Source of the DNA: a virus
Lineage: Duplodnaviria; Heunggongvirae; Uroviricota; Caudoviricetes
Reading direction: 5' to 3' (one strand)
IMG/VR virus record: IMGVR_UViG_2744054628_000007
Length of the DNA stretch: 4,879 bases
Part shown: piece by piece, positions 1-4,810 of the stretch
Position numbering within the stretch: the first letter of the stretch is position 1
Layout of the letters: each line of letters opens with the position of its first letter
Notes under the pieces: model-generated
What the model was told of the DNA's origin: nothing
The model's input: only the letters and a program-made list of their open reading frames with translations
Databases searched by the model: none
Made by a program: the position numbers and the translations under genes

Positions 1-1
1 C

Positions 2-184
2 ATCAAAGCAGTCTGTCAGTCAGTGCGTGAAGCCACCACCGCCTCCGGCGTGGATAATGCAGCCTCCCCCCGACTGGCAGACACCGCTGAACGGGATTAT
101 TTCACCCTCCGGGAACGACTGGTAATGATGCAGGCCCAACTTGAAGGTGCTCAGCAATACATAACCGAGCAGTGTTTAAAGTAA
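2..184 (+). CDS. Rz: Rz-like i-spanin (lysis protein), C-terminal fragment; 5' end lies outside the window
   Basis: Frame-2 translation IKAVCQSVREATTASGVDNAASPRLADTAERDYFTLRERLVMMQAQLEGAQQYITEQCLK* closely matches the C-terminus of phage lambda Rz as I recall it (…IKAVCQSVREATTASGVDNAASPRLADTAERDYFTLRERL…EQCR). Stop TAA at 182-184. Confidence 0.85.
   Translation: MKAVCQSVREATTASGVDNAASPRLADTAERDYFTLRERLVMMQAQLEGAQQYITEQCLK
3..125 (+). CDS. Rz1: Rz1-like o-spanin, C-terminal fragment, embedded in the +1 frame of Rz
   Basis: Frame-3 translation SKQSVSQCVKPPPPPAWIMQPPPDWQTPLNGIISPSGNDW* matches the proline-rich C-terminus of lambda Rz1 from memory. Stop TAA at 123-125. The nested arrangement inside Rz is the classic spanin architecture. 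Confidence 0.8.
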   Translation, partial: SKQSVSQCVKPPPPPAWIMQPPPDWQTPLNGIISPSGNDW

Positions 185-270
185 AATCTTAACTACAATA
201 TGATTCATTTTGATGATTGTTTCATAAGGAACAGTGAAGTAAGATCTAAGAGGAGTTAAATTTTATACAG

Positions 271-303
271 TATAATCATAATATTGCAGCAAGGTGGTTA
301 TAA
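271..303 (+). promoter_or_regulatory. Candidate sigma70 -10 elements upstream of trkG in an AT-rich intergenic region
   Basis: Two perfect TATAAT hexamers at 271-276 and 298-303 in the AT-rich spacer between Rz and trkG. No convincing -35 at 17 bp spacing for either (TTGCAG at 284-289 is too close to the second). Weak call. Confidence 0.2.
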
Positions 304-321
304 TTGAAAGAATATTTAGAT

Positions 322-1779
322 ATGAATACATCTCATGTAAGAGTTGTTACTCATATGTGTGGGTTCCTGGTTTGGCTCTATAGTCTTTCAATGTTGCCAC
401 CAATGGTTGTAGCATTGTTTTATAAAGAAAAAAGCCTGTTCGTTTTCTTTATAACTTTCGTTATATTTTTTTGCATTGGTGGCGGAGCGTGGTATACAAC
501 TAAGAAATCTGGCATTCAATTACGTACCCGTGATGGGTTTATTATAATTGTAATGTTTTGGATTTTGTTTTCTGTTATTAGTGCATTCCCTTTATGGATT
601 GACTCAGAACTTAATTTAACGTTCATTGATGCTCTGTTTGAAGGGGTTTCTGGAATAACAACAACAGGAGCAACTGTAATTGATGATGTTAGTTCATTAC
701 CTCGGGCATATTTGTACTATCGGTCACAGTTAAATTTTATAGGTGGTTTAGGAGTTATTGTTCTGGCGGTTGCTGTATTGCCATTATTGGGTATTGGTGG
801 TGCAAAGCTTTATCAGTCAGAAATGCCGGGGCCATTTAAGGATGACAAACTCACTCCCCGCCTGGCCGATACGTCACGGACACTGTGGATAACTTATTCT
901 TTATTAGGTATTGCTTGTATTGTCTGTTATAGACTTGCAGGAATGCCTTTGTTTGATGCTATTTGTCACGGGATTTCCACAGTTTCGCTTGGTGGTTTCT
1001 CAACTCATAGCGAGAGTATCGGATATTTTAATAACTATTTGGTTGAGCTGGTGGCTGGTTCTTTTTCCCTGCTATCGGCTTTCAACTTCACTCTTTGGTA
1101 TATTGTTATTAGCAGGAAAACGATAAAACCTTTAATCAGAGATATTGAACTTCGTTTCTTTCTGTTAATAGCCTTAGGGGTGATCATTGTTACCTCTTTC
1201 CAGGTCTGGCATATAGGTATGTATGACTTGCATGGAAGTTTTATTCATTCGTTTTTTCTTGCCAGCTCCATGCTCACTGATAATGGTTTAGCTACGCAGG
1301 ATTATGCAAGTTGGCCCACGCACACGATAGTGTTTTTGCTGTTGTCAAGTTTCTTTGGGGGATGTATAGGTTCAACTTGTGGTGGAATTAAGTCACTTCG
1401 ATTTCTTATACTTTTCAAACAAAGCAAACACGAGATAAATCAGCTTTCTCATCCCAGAGCGTTGTTGAGTGTAAATGTAGGAGGGAAGATAGTTACAGAT
1501 CGTGTAATGAGGTCTGTATGGAGTTTCTTTTTTCTTTATACTCTCTTCACGGTGTTTTTTATACTGGTGTTAAATGGTATGGGATATGATTTTCTTACAT
1601 CATTTGCAACAGTGGCTGCATGTATTAATAATATGGGATTAGGTTTTGGGGCTACTGCATCGTCATTCGGAGTGCTTAATGACATTGCAAAATGTTTAAT
1701 GTGCATAGCTATGATTCTTGGTCGCCTTGAAATTTATCCTGTTATTATATTGTTTTCAGGTTTTTTTTGGCGCTCCTAA
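322..1779 (+). CDS. trkG: Trk-system K+ uptake membrane protein TrkG (TrkH/TrkG family), prophage-borne
   Basis: The ORF from ATG 322 gives 485 aa starting MNTSHVRVVTHMCGFLVWLYSL…, which I recognise as E. coli TrkG (Rac prophage). It is highly hydrophobic with multiple predicted TM segments and carries the selectivity-filter-like motif EGVSGITTTGATV. Stop TAA at 1777-1779. An alternative TTG start at 304 has a good SD (AAGGTGG at 291-297, 6 nt spacer), whereas ATG 322 has no obvious SD. The region is visibly AT-rich compared with flanking genes. Confidence 0.93.
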   Translation: MNTSHVRVVTHMCGFLVWLYSLSMLPPMVVALFYKEKSLFVFFITFVIFFCIGGGAWYTTKKSGIQLRTRDGFIIIVMFWILFSVISAFPLWIDSELNLTFIDALFEGVSGITTTGATVIDDVSSLPRAYLYYRSQLNFIGGLGVIVLAVAVLPLLGIGGAKLYQSEMPGPFKDDKLTPRLADTSRTLWITYSLLGIACIVCYRLAGMPLFDAICHGISTVSLGGFSTHSESIGYFNNYLVELVAGSFSLLSAFNFTLWYIVISRKTIKPLIRDIELRFFLLIALGVIIVTSFQVWHIGMYDLHGSFIHSFFLASSMLTDNGLATQDYASWPTHTIVFLLLSSFFGGCIGSTCGGIKSLRFLILFKQSKHEINQLSHPRALLSVNVGGKIVTDRVMRSVWSFFFLYTLFTVFFILVLNGMGYDFLTSFATVAACINNMGLGFGATASSFGVLNDIAKCLMCIAMILGRLEIYPVIILFSGFFWRS

Positions 1780-1865
1780 TATATGGCTGATTTATAATTG
1801 TGAGTTTAATATTATGTTGACTCACTCATTGATCCAATACCTAACTTTACCAGCAACACCTCCGT

Positions 1866-1900
1866 CCCCAGTAGCACTGGCTGCTGGGGTGCGTTTTATT
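1866..1900 (+). terminator. Candidate rho-independent terminator downstream of trkG
   Basis: GC-rich inverted repeat CCCCAGTAGC / GCTGCTGGGG at 1866-1889 (about 9-10 bp stem with one G·U wobble, 4-6 nt loop), followed by TGCG and then TTTTATT. The U-tract is offset 4 nt from the stem, so this is only a moderate candidate. Confidence 0.35.
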
Positions 1901-1916
1901 CATAAAGCAAGGCTGT

Positions 1917-2708
1917 ATGAGCGAGAAATTAAAGATAGTCTATCGCCCATTACAAGAATTGTCACCGTATGCGCACAACGCCAGGACGCACAGTACTGAG
2001 CAGGTGGCACAACTGGTAGAAAGTATTAAGCAATTCGGCTGGACTAATCCGGTGCTGATTGACGAAAAGGGCGAAATTATTGCGGGTCACGGTCGTGTTA
2101 TGGCGGCTGAAATGCTCAAAATGGATTCTGTTCCGGTCATTGTTCTGTCTGGCCTGACGGATGAGCAGAAAAAGGCGTACCGCCTGGCAGATAATCGCCT
2201 GCCGATGAATGCTGGCTGGGATGAAGATCTGTTGCGGATGGAGCTGTCGGACCTAATCAATGCTGATTTTGATGTCTCCCTGACAGGCTTCATCCCGACA
2301 GAAATTGATGAACTGTTGACGGATGTTTTGCCCGGTACAGGAAATGAGGAGGAGCCGTATACGACGAAAATTGATACGCCTGTTTATGAGCCGTCGGGCG
2401 GTAAACCGGATATCAGTGAACTGTACGACGATACGAAAACTCAGGAGCTGATCAGCCGGATACGTTCGGCGTCCCTTGAGCCTGATATTGAGAAATTCCT
2501 CCTGTGTGCGGCAGAACGTCACACGGTGTTTAATTTCAGCAGAATTGCGGACTATTACGCTCACGCCCCCTCTGAAATTCAGTGTTTTTTCGAGGAGTCG
2601 GCGCTGGTGATCATTGATTATCAGCAGGCTATTGAAAATGGATTTGTCCGGATGACGCAGCGCATGGTGGAGATCATGCATGGTGGTGAGGAGGAGGAAT
2701 ATGCGTGA
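1917..2708 (+). CDS. ParB/sulfiredoxin-like (ParB N-terminal domain) protein with an acidic C-terminal extension
   Basis: 263-aa ORF. The N-terminal ~100 aa (…YRPLQELSPYAHNARTHSTEQVAQLVESIKQFGWTNPVLIDEKGEIIAGHGRVMAAEMLKMDSVPVIVL…) has the ParB/Srx layout: a conserved N-x-R region followed by a G-x-x-R motif (GHGR) before AA. The ~160-aa C-terminal part is acidic and has no motif I recognise. SD-like AAGG sits 4 nt upstream of ATG 1917. By position (immediately after trkG) it corresponds to ynaK of K-12 Rac, but I am recalling that gene order, not its sequence or length. Confidence 0.75.
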   Translation: MSEKLKIVYRPLQELSPYAHNARTHSTEQVAQLVESIKQFGWTNPVLIDEKGEIIAGHGRVMAAEMLKMDSVPVIVLSGLTDEQKKAYRLADNRLPMNAGWDEDLLRMELSDLINADFDVSLTGFIPTEIDELLTDVLPGTGNEEEPYTTKIDTPVYEPSGGKPDISELYDDTKTQELISRIRSASLEPDIEKFLLCAAERHTVFNFSRIADYYAHAPSEIQCFFEESALVIIDYQQAIENGFVRMTQRMVEIMHGGEEEEYA

Positions 2709-3633
2709 TGATTTTTGCGCCTTTATTCTGACTCACGGGCGACCGGACAAAGTTCTGACTTACCGGACGTTGCGTCGTGCTGGCTATACCGGGAAAATTT
2801 TTATCGTTGTTGATGATGAAGATAAGACACGGCATCAGTACATGGCTGAATTTGGTGAACAGGTGCTGGTGTTTTCCAAAGCCGATATCGCCAGTCGTTT
2901 TGACGAAGCCGATAATTTCTGTGACCGCCGCTCAATTTTTTACGCCCGTAATGCCTGTTTCGACCTGGCAAAACTGGTCGGGTGTAAATACTTCATTCAG
3001 CTCGATGATGATTATCACGAGTTCCAGTTTCGGGTGGATCGCAACTATGACCAGGCCTATTTTCCGATAAGGAAACTGGATGCGATCCTTTCTGAAATGC
3101 TGGCGTACTACGAATCAATACCTGCTCTTTCCATCGCTATGTCGCAGGGCGGGGATTTTCTTGGTGACAATGGCGGCCATGCTTCGTGGGTGAAACGCAA
3201 GGCAATGAACAGCTTTATCTGTTCGGTTGATCGACCGTTCTCATTCATGGGGCGCATTAACGAGGATGTGAATACGTACACGAATCTCGGTCGCTGTGGT
3301 GAATTGTTTATGACGATCGGTGCTGTCCAGTTAGGGCAGAAACAGACGCAGAAAAACAGCGGCGGAATGACCGAGCTGTATCTGGATTCCGGAACCTACG
3401 TTAAAAGTTTTTACTCCGTCATGTATGCGCCGTCGTGCGTAAAAATCTCACTGATGGGTGCCAGCCATAAACGCATTCACCATCAGGTCACCTGGAACAA
3501 CGCTGCAGTAAAAATCCTTCACGAAAAATACAGGAAGAAGACACCCTGCATATCAATGGGGGTGACAAATGATTCCGTATTCGAAAGTCGAGTCTCTGGC
3601 AGCGTGCCGGATGACTGCACAACAAATCGCTGA
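2701..3633 (+). CDS. Hypothetical protein with glycosyltransferase GT-A-like motifs, translationally coupled to the upstream ParB-like gene
   Basis: I prefer ATG 2701 (MRDDFCAFILTHGRPD…, 310 aa) over the track's 2680 start, because a strong SD (GAGGAGGAGGA, 2688-2698) precedes it and it overlaps the upstream stop (ATGCGTGA, 2701-2708). Motif order resembles the GT-A nucleotide-sugar transferase fold: hydrophobic strand FCAFILTHGRPD, second strand with acidic tail IFIVVDDED, and a DxD-like YFIQLDDDY near residue 100. No hydrophobic TM stretch. Function is unverified. Confidence 0.6.
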   Translation: MRDDFCAFILTHGRPDKVLTYRTLRRAGYTGKIFIVVDDEDKTRHQYMAEFGEQVLVFSKADIASRFDEADNFCDRRSIFYARNACFDLAKLVGCKYFIQLDDDYHEFQFRVDRNYDQAYFPIRKLDAILSEMLAYYESIPALSIAMSQGGDFLGDNGGHASWVKRKAMNSFICSVDRPFSFMGRINEDVNTYTNLGRCGELFMTIGAVQLGQKQTQKNSGGMTELYLDSGTYVKSFYSVMYAPSCVKISLMGASHKRIHHQVTWNNAAVKILHEKYRKKTPCISMGVTNDSVFESRVSGSVPDDCTTNR

Positions 3634-3820
3634 CGTTCTGGATGTTGATCTGAACCGACTGAAAGAAAATCGGGAAGCAATGACAGATTTTTATGCGGCC
3701 ATCCGTAAGGGCAGAGCGAAAGGTGAAGCCGAGTTACGAGCGGCATTGTTTAAGCTTGCCAGAAAAGGGGATGCCTTTGCTCTGCGCGAACTACTCAGGG
3801 TGGATAAAAATCAGGACTAA
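3569..3820 (+). CDS. Small helix-turn-helix protein (83 aa), possibly a terminase small-subunit-like DNA-binding protein
   Basis: Strong RBS (GGGGGTGA at 3558-3565, 4 nt spacer) before ATG 3569. The segment MTAQQIADVLDVDLNRL is HTH-like, reminiscent of the N-terminal DNA-binding region of small terminases such as lambda Nu1, followed by a basic helical tail. It overlaps the 3' end of the upstream gene by 65 nt; an alternative in-frame ATG at 3611 would shorten the overlap to 23 nt. Stop TAA at 3818-3820, 3 nt before the next ATG. Confidence 0.55.
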   Translation: MIPYSKVESLAACRMTAQQIADVLDVDLNRLKENREAMTDFYAAIRKGRAKGEAELRAALFKLARKGDAFALRELLRVDKNQD

Positions 3821-3823
3821 CTG

Positions 3824-4810
3824 ATGAGCAGACCGGACTGGGGGGCGTTGCAGCAGGAGTATATTGCTGAATACACCCGCTCCGGTATATCTCCGGTGGC
3901 ATGGTGTGAAGCAAGGGGACTGAATTACGCAACAGCCCGTCGTTACATCAAAAAAACTCCGAAAAATGCGCAGACAGAAATGTGCAAAACTGCGCAAAAA
4001 AGTGCGCAGAAAAAATCTGCGCAGACTGCACAAAAGCGGAACGAAAAATCTCAGGAAAAAAAGCCAGTATTCGATGCGGGCCTGAATGAGGGCGACGCGG
4101 AGGAATTTTCGTTCTGTCCCGATGAATTCGGCATTTCTGACCAGCAGGCTAAGTTTGCGATGCTTGTTGCTCAGGGTAAAAAGCCGACATGCAAGGGGAT
4201 TTGGGAGCATCCAGGTATAAATCAGGGATATTTTGCGCCAACGTATCCCCAAATTCGCGATATTTTTTACCCTACAGTGGAAGAAGTTGCTGCTGACTGG
4301 GGATTGAACGTAAAAATTAATGAGGGAAATAAAGAGGTTCACTTTTATTACGGACGCCAGTATCGGGGAACCACTATCTGCAGATCGATGGAGAAGCCAC
4401 AAACGATCGTCGGTTTCAAAATTGGTAATGCGTTGGTGGATGAACTGGACATTTTGCCGAAGGAAAAAGCCAGAACGGCGTGGCGCAAGATAATTGCACG
4501 TATGCGTTATAAGATTGATGGACTTCGCAACGGTATTGACGTTACAACCACGCCGGAAGGATTCAAATTTGTCTACGAGCAGTTTGTTAAAGCCGTGCGT
4601 GAAAAAACAGAGCTGGCCTCACTGTATGGTCTGGTGCAGGCATCTACTTTCGATAATGAAAAGAACCTGCCAGCAGATTACATTCCTTCGCTTCTTGAAT
4701 CATACCCTCCAGAGCTGATTAAAGCCTATCTTCGAGGACAGTTTACTAACCTGACAAGTGGTACTGTTTACCTGATCTTACCCAGCAATAGTGGACACGC
4801 GGCTAAGTGA
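3824..4810 (+). CDS. Phage protein with N-terminal terminase-small-subunit-like HTH, a low-complexity AQK-rich linker and a ~250-aa uncharacterised C-terminal domain
   Basis: 328-aa ORF. The N-terminus WGALQQEYIAEYTRSGISPVAWCEARGLNYATARRYI follows the pattern of TerS DNA-binding domains (compare SPP1 G1P-like …EY…AA…AGYS…A). Residues ~45-80 (KNAQTEMCKTAQKSAQKKSAQTAQKRNEKSQEKK) are low complexity. It is tightly linked to the upstream gene (TAA-CTG-ATG). I cannot assign the C-terminal domain. Confidence 0.55.
   Translation: MSRPDWGALQQEYIAEYTRSGISPVAWCEARGLNYATARRYIKKTPKNAQTEMCKTAQKSAQKKSAQTAQKRNEKSQEKKPVFDAGLNEGDAEEFSFCPDEFGISDQQAKFAMLVAQGKKPTCKGIWEHPGINQGYFAPTYPQIRDIFYPTVEEVAADWGLNVKINEGNKEVHFYYGRQYRGTTICRSMEKPQTIVGFKIGNALVDELDILPKEKARTAWRKIIARMRYKIDGLRNGIDVTTTPEGFKFVYEQFVKAVREKTELASLYGLVQASTFDNEKNLPADYIPSLLESYPPELIKAYLRGQFTNLTSGTVYLILPSNSGHAAK
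3967..4032. repeat. Cluster of six palindromic TGCGCA-like hexamers at 9-15 bp spacing
   Basis: TGCGCA at 3967, 3991, 4003 and 4018; TGTGCA at 3981; TGCACA at 4027. Each lies in an A-rich context (…AAAAATGCGCAGA…). The cluster sits inside the 328-aa CDS, encoding its AQK-rich linker. Confidence 0.6.

Follow-up and report, generated by a model that had tools for sequence, protein, structure and literature searches.

A ParB-fold protein and a glycosyltransferase of the TAGT family (TET-associated glycosyltransferase) are encoded side by side, almost without exception, in 243 phage loci, mostly by overlapping genes and mostly just 5′ of the terminase. In the window analyzed here, a 4,879-nucleotide stretch of a Rac-like E. 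coli prophage, the open reading frame read-out places the ParB-fold gene at 1917–2708 (plus strand, 263 aa), overlapping the glycosyltransferase (GT) gene at 2701–3633 (plus strand, 310 aa). At roughly even confidence, we interpret the pair as a late-expressed, ParB-assisted two-component glycosylation module of temperate tailed phages that would act on phage DNA. The first-pass annotation, which envisaged a GT-like effector on a DNA-targeting ParB scaffold, is upheld in part: the GT-like partner and a ParB module common to DNA-methylase fusions both stand, whereas DNA as the target stays a conditional reading. That annotation had also known of no characterized function for the pair, and a search of the literature on ynaK/ydaY, PF20691/GREB1-related proteins, ParB with glycosyltransferase, and HHTV-2 returned no experimental study of it. 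Nor is modified DNA reported for any pair-carrying phage in the searchable literature, a point against the proposed module.

Junction, linkage, and genomic position of the pair

A stop/start overlap and a strong Shine–Dalgarno sequence inside the upstream gene had been noted at the outset, and direct read-out confirmed both. The ParB-partner frame ends in GEEEEYA at TGA 2706–2708, and the GT opens with MRDDFCAF at ATG 2701–2703; the resulting 8-nt overlap, ATGCGTGA (2701–2708, plus strand), contains the start codon of one gene and the stop codon of the other. The Shine–Dalgarno-like GAGGAGGAGGA (2688–2698, plus strand), within the 3′ end of the ParB-partner gene, presents GGAGG cores 3 and 6 nt 5′ of the GT ATG and doubles as coding sequence for the acidic tail of the partner. 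An in-frame upstream ATG at 2680 was rejected as the GT start in favor of ATG 2701 because, in phages of Lactobacillus, Nocardia, and Haloarcula, the homologous proteins begin within a few residues of this methionine; close relatives begin MR[DEN]DF. Across 218 scored junctions, nearly all overlap by 4–32 nt, with single overlap lengths being approximate owing to heuristic start-picking. The exact ATGCGTGA geometry recurs in six other loci whose proteins are only ~57–78% identical, and in one further locus the two frames are fused in-frame. The overlap is more than a chance arrangement.

The neighborhood survey suggested by the first-pass annotation was carried out in both directions, GT-led and partner-led, over the 243 fetched loci, and in either direction homologues of the two genes co-occur almost without exception. 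The partner lies directly upstream of the GT in 88 of 90 GT-led loci. Among 152 partner-led loci with room downstream, the GT is adjacent in 147 and fused in 1, and a donor gene alone intervenes in the other 4, where a His_Phos+cytidylyltransferase-like gene sits between partner and GT. The pair occurs in phages of Proteobacteria, Firmicutes, Actinobacteria, and Bacteroidota as well as in a haloarchaeal virus. Genes for UDP-galactopyranose mutase, an epimerase/dehydratase, or a second TAGT are occasionally found downstream, and we count such donor-supply or tailoring genes, in or beside the pair, in favor of glycosyltransferase activity. A radical-SAM gene also appears as a neighbor and carries no specific NCBIfam name.

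The proximity to the packaging module that had been pointed out for this window proved to be common across phyla, with TerL no more than two genes downstream of the pair in at least 52 of ~75 diverse loci. In the window, a small ORF (3611–3820, plus strand; 69 aa from ATG 3611, or 83 aa from ATG 3569) overlaps the 3′ end of the GT gene. Labeled a hypothetical protein in intact prophages, it has partial small-terminase similarity (PHROG 309, E 8e-23), and the packaging genes begin with it. It is followed by a defective terminase region (3824–4772, plus strand) in which the N-terminal part of TerS is joined to the TerL ATPase domain through an 825-bp deletion (junction 4189/4190), the fusion ORF then being broken by IS3 from ~4773. 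On the other side, a terminator-like hairpin (CCCCAGTAGCACTGGCTGCTGGGG plus a T-rich tail; 1866–1899, plus strand) separates the trkG insert from the ParB-partner gene, and no promoter-like site was seen 3′ of it. Because of this arrangement, the pair is probably read only by antiterminated late transcription. The late-operon site after the hairpin, the lack of a promoter-like site, and the nearness of TerL all favor late timing.

A TAGT glycosyltransferase and its ParB-fold partner

Profile searches, which had been recommended for both proteins, place the 310-aa product in a glycosyltransferase family and not in one with an unrelated role. It matches the Pfam family TAGT (PF20691) over residues 8–222 with 122.3 bits against a gathering threshold of 27.5 (E 3.4e-35), has the GT-A (nucleotide-diphospho-sugar transferase) fold, and has homologues bearing the precomputed PF20691 label. 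Together with an intact R...DDD...ED...HH signature, these results bear out the glycosyltransferase-like motifs first read from the sequence. The signature residues, invariant in 77–80 of 80 diverse homologues, comprise Arg14 of a THGRPD motif (2740–2742; 80/80), the DxD-type metal and nucleotide-sugar motif Asp102-Asp103-Asp104 (3004–3012; 78–80 of 80), Glu188-Asp189 of an INEDV motif (3262–3267; Asp in 78/78), and His260-His261 (3478–3483; 77/77), all on the plus strand. Glu188-Asp189 is followed by Val, versus Tyr or Phe in the reported R...DDD...ED(Y/F) motif. The gene is under purifying selection (dN/dS 0.06–0.12). The C-terminal region is basic (pI 9.7) and modeled at low confidence. Run against the sequences of the PDB, the GT profile gave no match at E ≤ 1, and PADLOC-DB 2.0 gave none at E ≤ 0.01 for either the GT or the 69-aa ORF. 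Some GTs carry a P-loop-like N-terminal extension in which Pfam matches nothing. Genes of the pair are currently annotated variously as "hypothetical," "GREB1-related," "beta-glucosyl-HMC-alpha-glucosyltransferase," and "partition protein."

The partner, encoded by full-length ynaK (263 aa, pI 4.5), is built of three parts. Residues 1–135 (1917–2321, plus strand) form an N-module of the ParB/Srx (ParB-CTPase) fold, which carries the motifs NAR, GHGR (P-motif Arg60), and ADN. A predicted disordered linker (residues 137–169) holds the conserved linear motif PYTTKIDTPVYEPSGGKP (residues 147–164; 2355–2408, plus strand), whose family consensus is Y-[TS]-x-K-[IV]-x-x-P-x-Y-E-P-x-G-x-x-P; Tyr148, Pro155, and Tyr157 are each present in >98% of 238 partner sequences. 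A family-specific all-helical C-terminal domain (residues ~170–255; 2424–2681, plus strand) precedes the acidic tail and follows the pattern ...AAERHTVFNF..IADYYAHA..EIQ..FEESALVIIDY..AIENGF. No library searched describes this C-domain, which is unrelated to known structures. The AlphaFold 2 model is confident for residues 1–135, falls to a pLDDT of ~32 across the linker, and predicts helices for 170–255, with the C-domain at low confidence. Like its neighbor, the partner gene evolves under purifying selection (dN/dS 0.10–0.15). Partner proteins are acidic (median pI 4.6) versus basic GTs (median pI 8.8). The P-motif arginine is absent in ~23% of partners; therefore, an NTP-gated clamp cannot be universal.

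Identity as a canonical partition ParB was rejected. The partner differs from ParABS ParB, KorB, and Noc in that it lies in a phage late operon and not in a replicon partition locus. No ParA gene was found in the intact prophage or in the phage contexts examined, neither Pfam nor the AlphaFold 2 model places a helix-turn-helix (HTH) after the N-module, and the TIGR00180 match, over the N-terminal region only, reaches 38.1 bits where the cut-off is 58.45. Phage ParB N-domains had instead been described at the outset as usual companions of DNA-modifying enzymes, and homology to ParB–DNA methyltransferase fusions supports this. The N-module (~1–140) is homologous to, and up to 56% identical with, that of fusions such as PHROG 498, PADLOC MTase_II, and gp03 of Verrucomicrobia phage P8625, which also share the pre-terminase genomic position. 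Only the ParB module matches, at positions 13–151 of 436 in PADLOC MTase_II and 31–171 of 633 in phrog_498, and no methyltransferase domain is fused to it here. Where the fusions carry a covalently attached N6/N4 methylase, the present partner has the linker motif and C-domain, with a separate, translationally coupled GT.

Another parallel is provided by ParB176, a ParB-like protein that is an obligatory activator of the phage thymine dioxygenase 5mYOX176 on dsDNA, within a set of cognate-specific 5mYOX/ParB pairs (O'Toole et al., PNAS 2026, PMC13229309). In both proteins, a long disordered linker joins a nucleotide-binding N-domain to a C-terminal domain and no HTH is present, and the present partner reproduces the 5mYOX-associated architecture down to the short helical segment and the ~30–50-aa linker. 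Both are encoded beside an enzyme, which in the ParB176 system is a post-replicative DNA modifier. That effector is an Fe/2OG dioxygenase; here it is a glycosyltransferase, whose activation by the partner we propose by analogy. Cognate specificity in the ParB176 system is paralleled by co-evolution in ours: in a mirror-tree comparison, the C-domain and GT correlate with r 0.71 (partial 0.66), whereas the N-module gives a partial r of -0.03. At the sequence level, then, GT divergence tracks the C-domain and not the N-module, a signal that could reflect the physical linkage of neighboring DNA instead of protein contact. In Vibrio phage pv27, a stand-alone linker and C-domain protein, devoid of the ParB N-module, adjoins the GT and keeps the linker motif.

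The TAGT family was reportedly defined by Iyer et al. in 2013. Its T2/T6 member acts on DNA (PMC13216743), and other phage GT-A enzymes of the family act on 5hmC (bioRxiv 10.1101/2023.12.21.572611). The GT shares sequence family, GT-A fold, R...DDD...ED motif, and phage origin with the T2/T6 beta-glucosyl-HMC-alpha-glucosyltransferase and with the GT-As of C5-methyltransferase/TET (5mYOX) clusters. Those enzymes depend on a hydroxymethylase, or on TET together with a methyltransferase, for their 5hmC or glucosyl-5hmC acceptor, whereas the whole prophage contains no such supplier. The present GT further differs in its near-obligatory pairing with a ParB-fold adaptor and its placement before the terminase. 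Two reported eukaryotic relatives in the same GT-A clade, neither described with a ParB partner, are the base-J glucosyltransferase JGT, which glucosylates 5hmU in DNA and needs JBP-made 5hmU, and GREB1, a protein O-GlcNAc transferase (PMC7968844).

The acceptor and competing readings

In the mechanism we favor, the 310-aa protein would be an active GT-A glycosyltransferase using a nucleotide-activated sugar, presumably a host UDP-sugar in E. coli since no donor-synthesis gene is present with the E. coli pair. The 263-aa protein would serve as its dedicated adaptor or activator, with the linker motif and C-domain as the GT-cognate part and the ParB/Srx N-module as an exchangeable NTP switch like those that phages join to DNA methyltransferases as well. 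If the ParB-like activator of thymine dioxygenase is a guide, the adaptor may tether the basic GT to phage dsDNA after replication or switch it on there, and glycosylation of the genome before packaging would shield it from host nucleases, in a putative anti-restriction role. The direction toward DNA is favored by the homology of the N-module to DNA-methylase fusions, the basic GT with its acidic partner, the DNA-acting phage TAGTs, and the ParB176 precedent. Counting against the module are the strong acidity of the partner, which has no DNA-binding domain, and the low-confidence models of its C-domain and of the GT C-terminus.

The nature of the acceptor also weighs against DNA. To our knowledge, all characterized acceptors in this GT family are hydroxyls: 5hmC and glucosyl-5hmC, 5hmU for the related JGT, and Ser/Thr for GREB1. 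Ordinary DNA has hydroxyls only at its ends, and the DNA-glycosylating phages known to us make a hydroxylated base first (5hmC, 5hmU, or 5-hydroxycytosine) and add sugars after. A co-encoded supplier of hydroxymethyl-pyrimidine was looked for and not found: neither a TET/JBP-type 5mYOX, with or without a C5-methyltransferase, nor a thymidylate-synthase-type hydroxymethylase occurs in the annotation of the intact 42-kb prophage region (62 features), in the complete 31.8-kb phage c5 (with no such Pfam domain in its ten largest hypothetical proteins), or among the 25 commonest Pfam families near the pair. This search covered one intact prophage, phage c5, and censuses of two genes on either side of the pair (downstream in 75 and upstream in ~80 of 89 representative loci). 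We regard the pair as a TET-independent version of a type of system already known from computational work. A bolder reading, held at less than even confidence, is that such ParB-coupled TAGTs put an undescribed glycosyl mark directly on ordinary, non-hydroxymethylated DNA, perhaps at a canonical base atom or a DNA end, with the ParB-fold adaptor as obligatory loader or activator.

The lack of a hydroxyl acceptor in unmodified DNA and of a hydroxymethylation pathway would also fit a GT that glycosylates protein, either the ParB-fold partner itself, as substrate or carrier, or a virion or packaging protein of the adjacent genes. The near-invariant Y-[TS]-x-K...P-x-Y-E-P stretch sits in a disordered linker, a typical docking or modification site, and persists even where the N-module is missing; the strict C-domain/GT co-evolution suits an enzyme–substrate pair too. 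The pair heads a block of structural genes, and kinship with the O-GlcNAc transferase GREB1 points the same way (PMC7968844). Ser160 of the linker motif was rejected as a conserved glycosyl acceptor, as this position is T/K/S/R across the 238 sequences, which speaks against the protein reading; the invariant Tyr148, Thr/Ser149, and Tyr157 are possible candidates. We nevertheless judge a protein target unlikely: the N-module is the one that phages fuse to DNA methylases, the GT is basic, and the phage TAGTs characterized so far act on DNA. The capsid-glycosylating phage GTs that we know of belong to other GT families.

Confinement of the pair's action to the packaging site or DNA ends, where it would mark cos/pac or cap terminase-made termini as a packaging or end-protection accessory, appears improbable. 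The conserved pre-terminase position invites this reading, as do the phage c5 pair, which begins 79 nt past the cos site, the end-restricted hydroxyls of ordinary DNA, and HNH endonuclease genes that lie close by on the upstream side at some loci (of 136 genes within two positions upstream, 6 match HNH and 2 match HNH_2). In HHTV-2, however, 3 kb separates the pair from TerL, and in large Vibrio phages the GT and a C-domain protein lie among replication genes. Tandem GTs and sugar-tailoring genes suggest elaborate glycans that suit a protective coat over a single mark, and the window's pair is intact despite its destroyed terminase, though that insertion may be recent. We consider it similarly improbable that the target is neither DNA nor protein (RNA, a nucleotide-derived immune signal, or a cell-envelope precursor) and that the pair serves counter-defense or superinfection exclusion. 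Neither protein has an obvious hydrophobic or membrane-spanning stretch as judged by eye, the GT lacks a PADLOC match, the promoterless late-operon site argues against expression from the prophage, and the ParB N-module associates with DNA enzymes.

Distribution in E. coli and implications

Most of the 2.1-kb region is present in ~16% of complete E. coli genomes, with partial matches in another ~14%. In K-12, where the first-pass annotation placed small or degenerate genes at this position of the Rac prophage, only an 85-codon ynaK remnant is left, beside a deletion spanning codon ~85 of ynaK to ydaY. K-12 ydaY itself was rejected as a GT remnant, being a tail-region gene. The deleted and IS3-interrupted terminase, the K-12 remnant, the numerous truncated or chimeric versions in E. 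coli assemblies, and the 740 of 1607 matching genomes without at least 80% of the region might suggest a decaying cryptic-prophage remnant without current function, but this is very improbable given that both ORFs are intact and match their counterparts in an apparently complete prophage at 100% identity, that selection is purifying and the catalytic residues invariant, and that replication-competent phages of many phyla conserve the pair.

These data place a bona fide member of a DNA-glycosyltransferase family, with intact catalytic residues and under purifying selection, in small temperate phages lacking any recognizable hydroxylated-base pathway. Two outcomes follow: new acceptor chemistry on DNA, or a widespread non-DNA role for a "DNA" glycosyltransferase family. 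Either would change the annotation of the genes in the pair, which is testable by standard genetics because E. coli prophages carry it. New reagents for DNA labeling or restriction resistance are a possible yield. If adaptor-dependent DNA glycosylation is correct, ParB-like activation of DNA-modifying enzymes would extend from dioxygenases to glycosyltransferases. If ordinary DNA is glycosylated directly, the pair would install a DNA modification of a new type, one carried by temperate phages across many phyla and by the Rac-like prophages of a sizable share of E. coli strains.

The ParB-fold and glycosyltransferase genes

A profile search assigned the 310-aa glycosyltransferase (GT; 2701-3633) to the Pfam family TAGT (TET-associated glycosyltransferase, PF20691; 122 bits, gathering threshold 27.5) and to PHROG 842 (E 6e-104); recent NCBI annotation names it a "GREB1-related protein." Phage GT-A DNA glycosyltransferases are reported to share an R...DDD...ED active-site signature (bioRxiv 10.1101/2023.12.21.572611), which the protein carries as R14, D102-104, and E188-D189, accompanied by H260-H261; across diverse homologues, these residues are invariant in 77-80 of 80. 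Judged by sequence, fold, and motif, the protein is a TAGT member, which bears out the GT-A-like character given to it in the first-pass annotation. The 263-aa product of the upstream gene (1917-2708), here called the partner, shares the ParB/Srx fold yet is no partition ParB; a domain search of the partner revealed no HTH, and the intact prophage annotation contained no ParA. Its N-terminal module (N-module) is followed by a disordered linker (residues 137-169) with the near-invariant motif Y-[TS]-x-K-[IV]-x-x-P-x-Y-E-P-x-G-x-x-P and by an all-helical C-terminal domain (C-domain), for which searches returned no match to any Pfam family or known structure. The C-domain family comprises ~1,200 clusters at 50% identity and nearly always forms the C-terminal half of a 250- to 300-aa protein.

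The ParB-fold ORF ends in ...GEEEEYA-TGA, with the stop codon at 2706-2708, and overlaps the GT start codon (ATG 2701) by 8 nt, ATGCGTGA (2701-2708). Within the end of the upstream gene, GAGGAGGAGGA (2688-2698) has GGAGG cores lying 3 and 6 nt 5' of this ATG. Both the overlap and the strong Shine-Dalgarno site proposed earlier are thus present. An in-frame upstream ATG at 2680 was rejected as the GT start because in Lactobacillus, Nocardia, and Haloarcula phages the homologous proteins begin within a few residues of the Met at 2701. This geometry is no local accident, since overlaps of 4-32 nt occur at nearly all of 218 junctions scored and exactly ATGCGTGA is found again where the encoded proteins share just ~57-78% identity. 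At one locus (L192, 4983-6551), the two frames are fused in-frame to encode a single 522-aa protein. The E. coli GT carries a C-terminal extension of ~25 residues (…TPCISMGVTNDSVFESRVSGSVPDDCTTNR; 3550-3633) that runs across the beginning of the next ORF and is missing from homologues of Salmonella, Klebsiella, and Enterobacter (287-290 aa).

The window (4879 bp) comes from a Rac-like, lambdoid E. coli prophage. It contains, in order, the 3' end of the gene for the Rz spanin (2-184), a trkG potassium-transporter insert (304/322-1779) of low GC content (33-43% versus 47-52% in the flanks), and a strong terminator-like hairpin (1866-1889) between trkG and the ParB-fold gene; 3' of the GT, a small ORF (3611-3820; start at 3569 or 3611) overlapping the GT 3' end precedes the terminase genes. 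The pair had been regarded as cargo at the lysis/packaging junction; with its low GC content and the hairpin that follows, the trkG insert is the cargo instead. Over positions 1-4772, the window has 100% identity with a prophage that adjoins ybhC in ETEC H10407 and is apparently complete, bar two lesions: a deletion of 825 bp at 4189/4190, which joins the N-terminal part of the small terminase to the ATPase domain of the large terminase (ORF 3824-4810), and an IS3 insertion from about 4773, with an insE-type ORF from ATG 4838. Because of the terminase fusion and IS3, this copy is packaging-defective, and within it the pair is intact. The annotated "terminase small subunit" of the intact prophage (L001, 22025-24401) is unusually long (364 aa), has just a weak Terminase_2 match (residues 122-321), and shares a 20-nt overlap with the large-subunit gene (433 aa).

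K-12 MG1655 keeps only window positions 1-2170. At this K-12 locus (1425377-1425980), ynaK (87 aa) represents ~85 codons from the start of the ParB-fold gene; a deletion joins ynaK to the tail gene ydaY, so that head, terminase, and GT genes are lost. A single paper on ynaK was found in the literature; it concerns overexpression of this truncated fragment, which in a screen gave higher MICs for six antibiotics (PMC12924614). The pair region has a match in 1607 of 5426 complete E. coli genomes, 867 of which cover at least 80% of it. Many E. coli assemblies encode parts of the GT or partner joined to tail, Lom, or terminase domains (protein matches P0004-P0043 and P0344-P0385), chimeras that would fit repeated deletion events within cryptic prophages of the Rac-like type.

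Linkage of partner and glycosyltransferase across phages

Among annotated phages, the order ParB-fold gene-GT-terminase, with overlapping frames, was found in Lactobacillus phages phi jlb1 and c5 (in c5, 79 nt 3' of cos), Nocardia phage NTR1, Porphyromonas phage 005b, and haloarchaeal virus HHTV-2. HMMs were built for each protein, and loci were fetched from IMG/VR. The partner lies directly upstream in 88 of 90 loci found through the GT, the exceptions being a partnerless T4-like Aeromonas phage and a locus in which the partner lies upstream at a distance of 3 kb. Among 152 partner-found loci with downstream room, the GT is adjacent in 147 and fused in one, confirming in both directions that the pair is conserved. 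The other four share the sole intervening gene observed, a histidine-phosphatase plus cytidylyltransferase-like enzyme (L196 1419-2387; L207 5208-6176; L215 5743-6699; L221 5719-6714). In its transferase half, this enzyme is similar to glycerol-3-phosphate cytidylyltransferase and to domain II of RfaE, which suggests that these phages may make a nucleotide-activated donor. Variant GTs include one with a C-terminal SAM-methyltransferase domain (L086 6001-7719), two with an ~185-aa N-terminal extension bearing a Walker-A motif and no Pfam match (L100 5714-7135; L160 5726-7117), and two TAGT paralogues in tandem (L131 5671-6582 and 6589-7446).

In Vibrio phage pv27 (191 kb; L007 5459-5878), the ORF directly 5' of the GT encodes 139 aa comprising the linker motif and C-domain alone, 46% identical to the window partner; it lies among replication genes and is annotated as hypothetical. 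Across 81 representative pairs, GT divergence tracked that of the C-domain (r 0.71; partial r 0.66 with the N-module controlled) and not that of the N-module (partial r -0.03 with the C-domain controlled), a pattern that implies a common unit and not necessarily protein contact, as neighboring DNA recombines together. These correlations argue that the motif, C-domain, and GT are inherited as a unit and that the N-module is exchangeable.

In profile searches, partner residues 1-140 aligned with the ParB portion of fused ParB-methyltransferases (phrog_498, E 9e-51; PADLOC MTase_II, E 1.5e-38), with relatives in 430 phage records. The nearest non-self relatives share ~56% identity, versus ~39% for the N-modules that accompany other GTs. 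Likewise just 5' of terminase, this N-module type is fused to an N6/N4 methylase in Verrucomicrobia phage P8625 and accompanied by an overlapping P-loop ATPase gene in Streptococcus phage Javan464. In Pasteurella phage Pmp13 (L248), an N-module-only protein (3989-4552; 56% identical to the window N-module) overlaps the gene for a 366-aa P-loop ATPase-GNAT acetyltransferase (4534-5634), again just 5' of terminase; this arrangement is a possible DNA-acylating analogue of the pair. These arrangements support the earlier suggestion of an effector swap on a common scaffold and agree with the association of phage ParB N-domains with methyltransferases noted there.

Genomic context and the acceptor

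Within the two genes 3' of the GT, at least 52 of 75 diverse loci encode a large-terminase family (Pfam: Terminase_6N, 28; Terminase_3, 21; GpA, 3). A UDP-galactopyranose mutase, an epimerase/dehydratase, or a second TAGT appears sporadically, and in 10 of about 75 loci, mostly gut metagenome phages, an ~315-aa radical-SAM protein is encoded directly 3' of the GT (L201 6622-7533; L153 6558-7511; L118 6573-7538; L100 7140-8102; L131 7418-8407; others). This protein is generic MoaA/SPASM-like, with no specific equivalog in an NCBIfam search, and could tailor the sugar or make the acceptor. The census 5' of the pair gave no conserved neighbor; lysis genes, HNH endonucleases, and late regulators were seen. 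Given that the window holds no promoter-like site 5' of the pair and that the hairpin separates it from trkG, the pair is probably expressed only via the antiterminated late transcript, during DNA packaging. A host-defense role for the silent prophage is therefore unlikely.

Among characterized relatives, phage GT-A enzymes transfer sugar to the hydroxyl of 5hmC (bioRxiv 10.1101/2023.12.21.572611), the T2/T6 enzyme (PF20691) to glucosyl-5hmC (PMC13216743), and the related base-J transferase to 5hmU (PMC7968844; bioRxiv 10.1101/2023.12.21.572611). No enzyme making a hydroxymethyl base was found among the 62 features annotated for the intact prophage, in the complete 31.8-kb phage c5 (including its ten largest hypothetical proteins), or in the 25 commonest families of the upstream or downstream census. 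The window GT thus differs from its family in lacking the name-giving context, a TET-type supplier. A published survey likewise found ~65% of phage GT contigs without a neighboring 5mYOX (TET/JBP-type dioxygenase) or thymidylate-synthase homologue. A DNA target would require a type of acceptor that is so far undescribed.

Candidate functions of the pair

For the interaction, target, and biological role of the pair, we infer a ParB-assisted glycosylation module that would work on replicated phage DNA ahead of packaging, a reading we rate as an even call. It draws on the association of the N-module with DNA enzymes, the action of characterized phage TAGT members on DNA, the charge split between a basic GT (median pI 8.8; pI 9.7 for window residues 201-285) and an acidic partner (pI 4.6), and one precedent. 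A phage thymine dioxygenase acting on dsDNA requires a ParB-like protein, in a cognate-specific manner and with dispensable NTP-binding residues (PMC13229309). This newly described activator resembles the partner in architecture (N-domain, disordered linker, C-domain, no HTH), and the dispensability fits the loss of the P-motif arginine from about 23% of partners.

GREB1 transfers sugar to Ser/Thr (PMC7968844), and a protein target, including the partner's own invariant Tyr/Thr motif, is an unlikely but leading alternative to DNA. Action only at cos/pac or DNA ends is quite improbable, and there is similarly slim prospect that the target is RNA, a signaling nucleotide, or an envelope polymer. 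That the pair is functionless decay in E. coli is scarcely credible, contradicted by purifying selection (dN/dS 0.06-0.12 for the GT and 0.10-0.15 for the ParB-fold gene) and invariant catalytic residues.

Iyer et al. reportedly noticed the ParB-TAGT association computationally in 2013. Papers citing that work support only the proposal that ParB directs modification enzymes. Literature searches found no experimental work on the pair, in keeping with the earlier statement that no characterized function is known for it. From sequence comparison, the pair is a widespread, TET-independent TAGT module coupled to a ParB C-domain. The gene pair as such will not surprise a specialist; a concrete question for study, directly testable in E. 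coli, arises from the lack of an acceptor together with a dedicated C-domain and such broad conservation.
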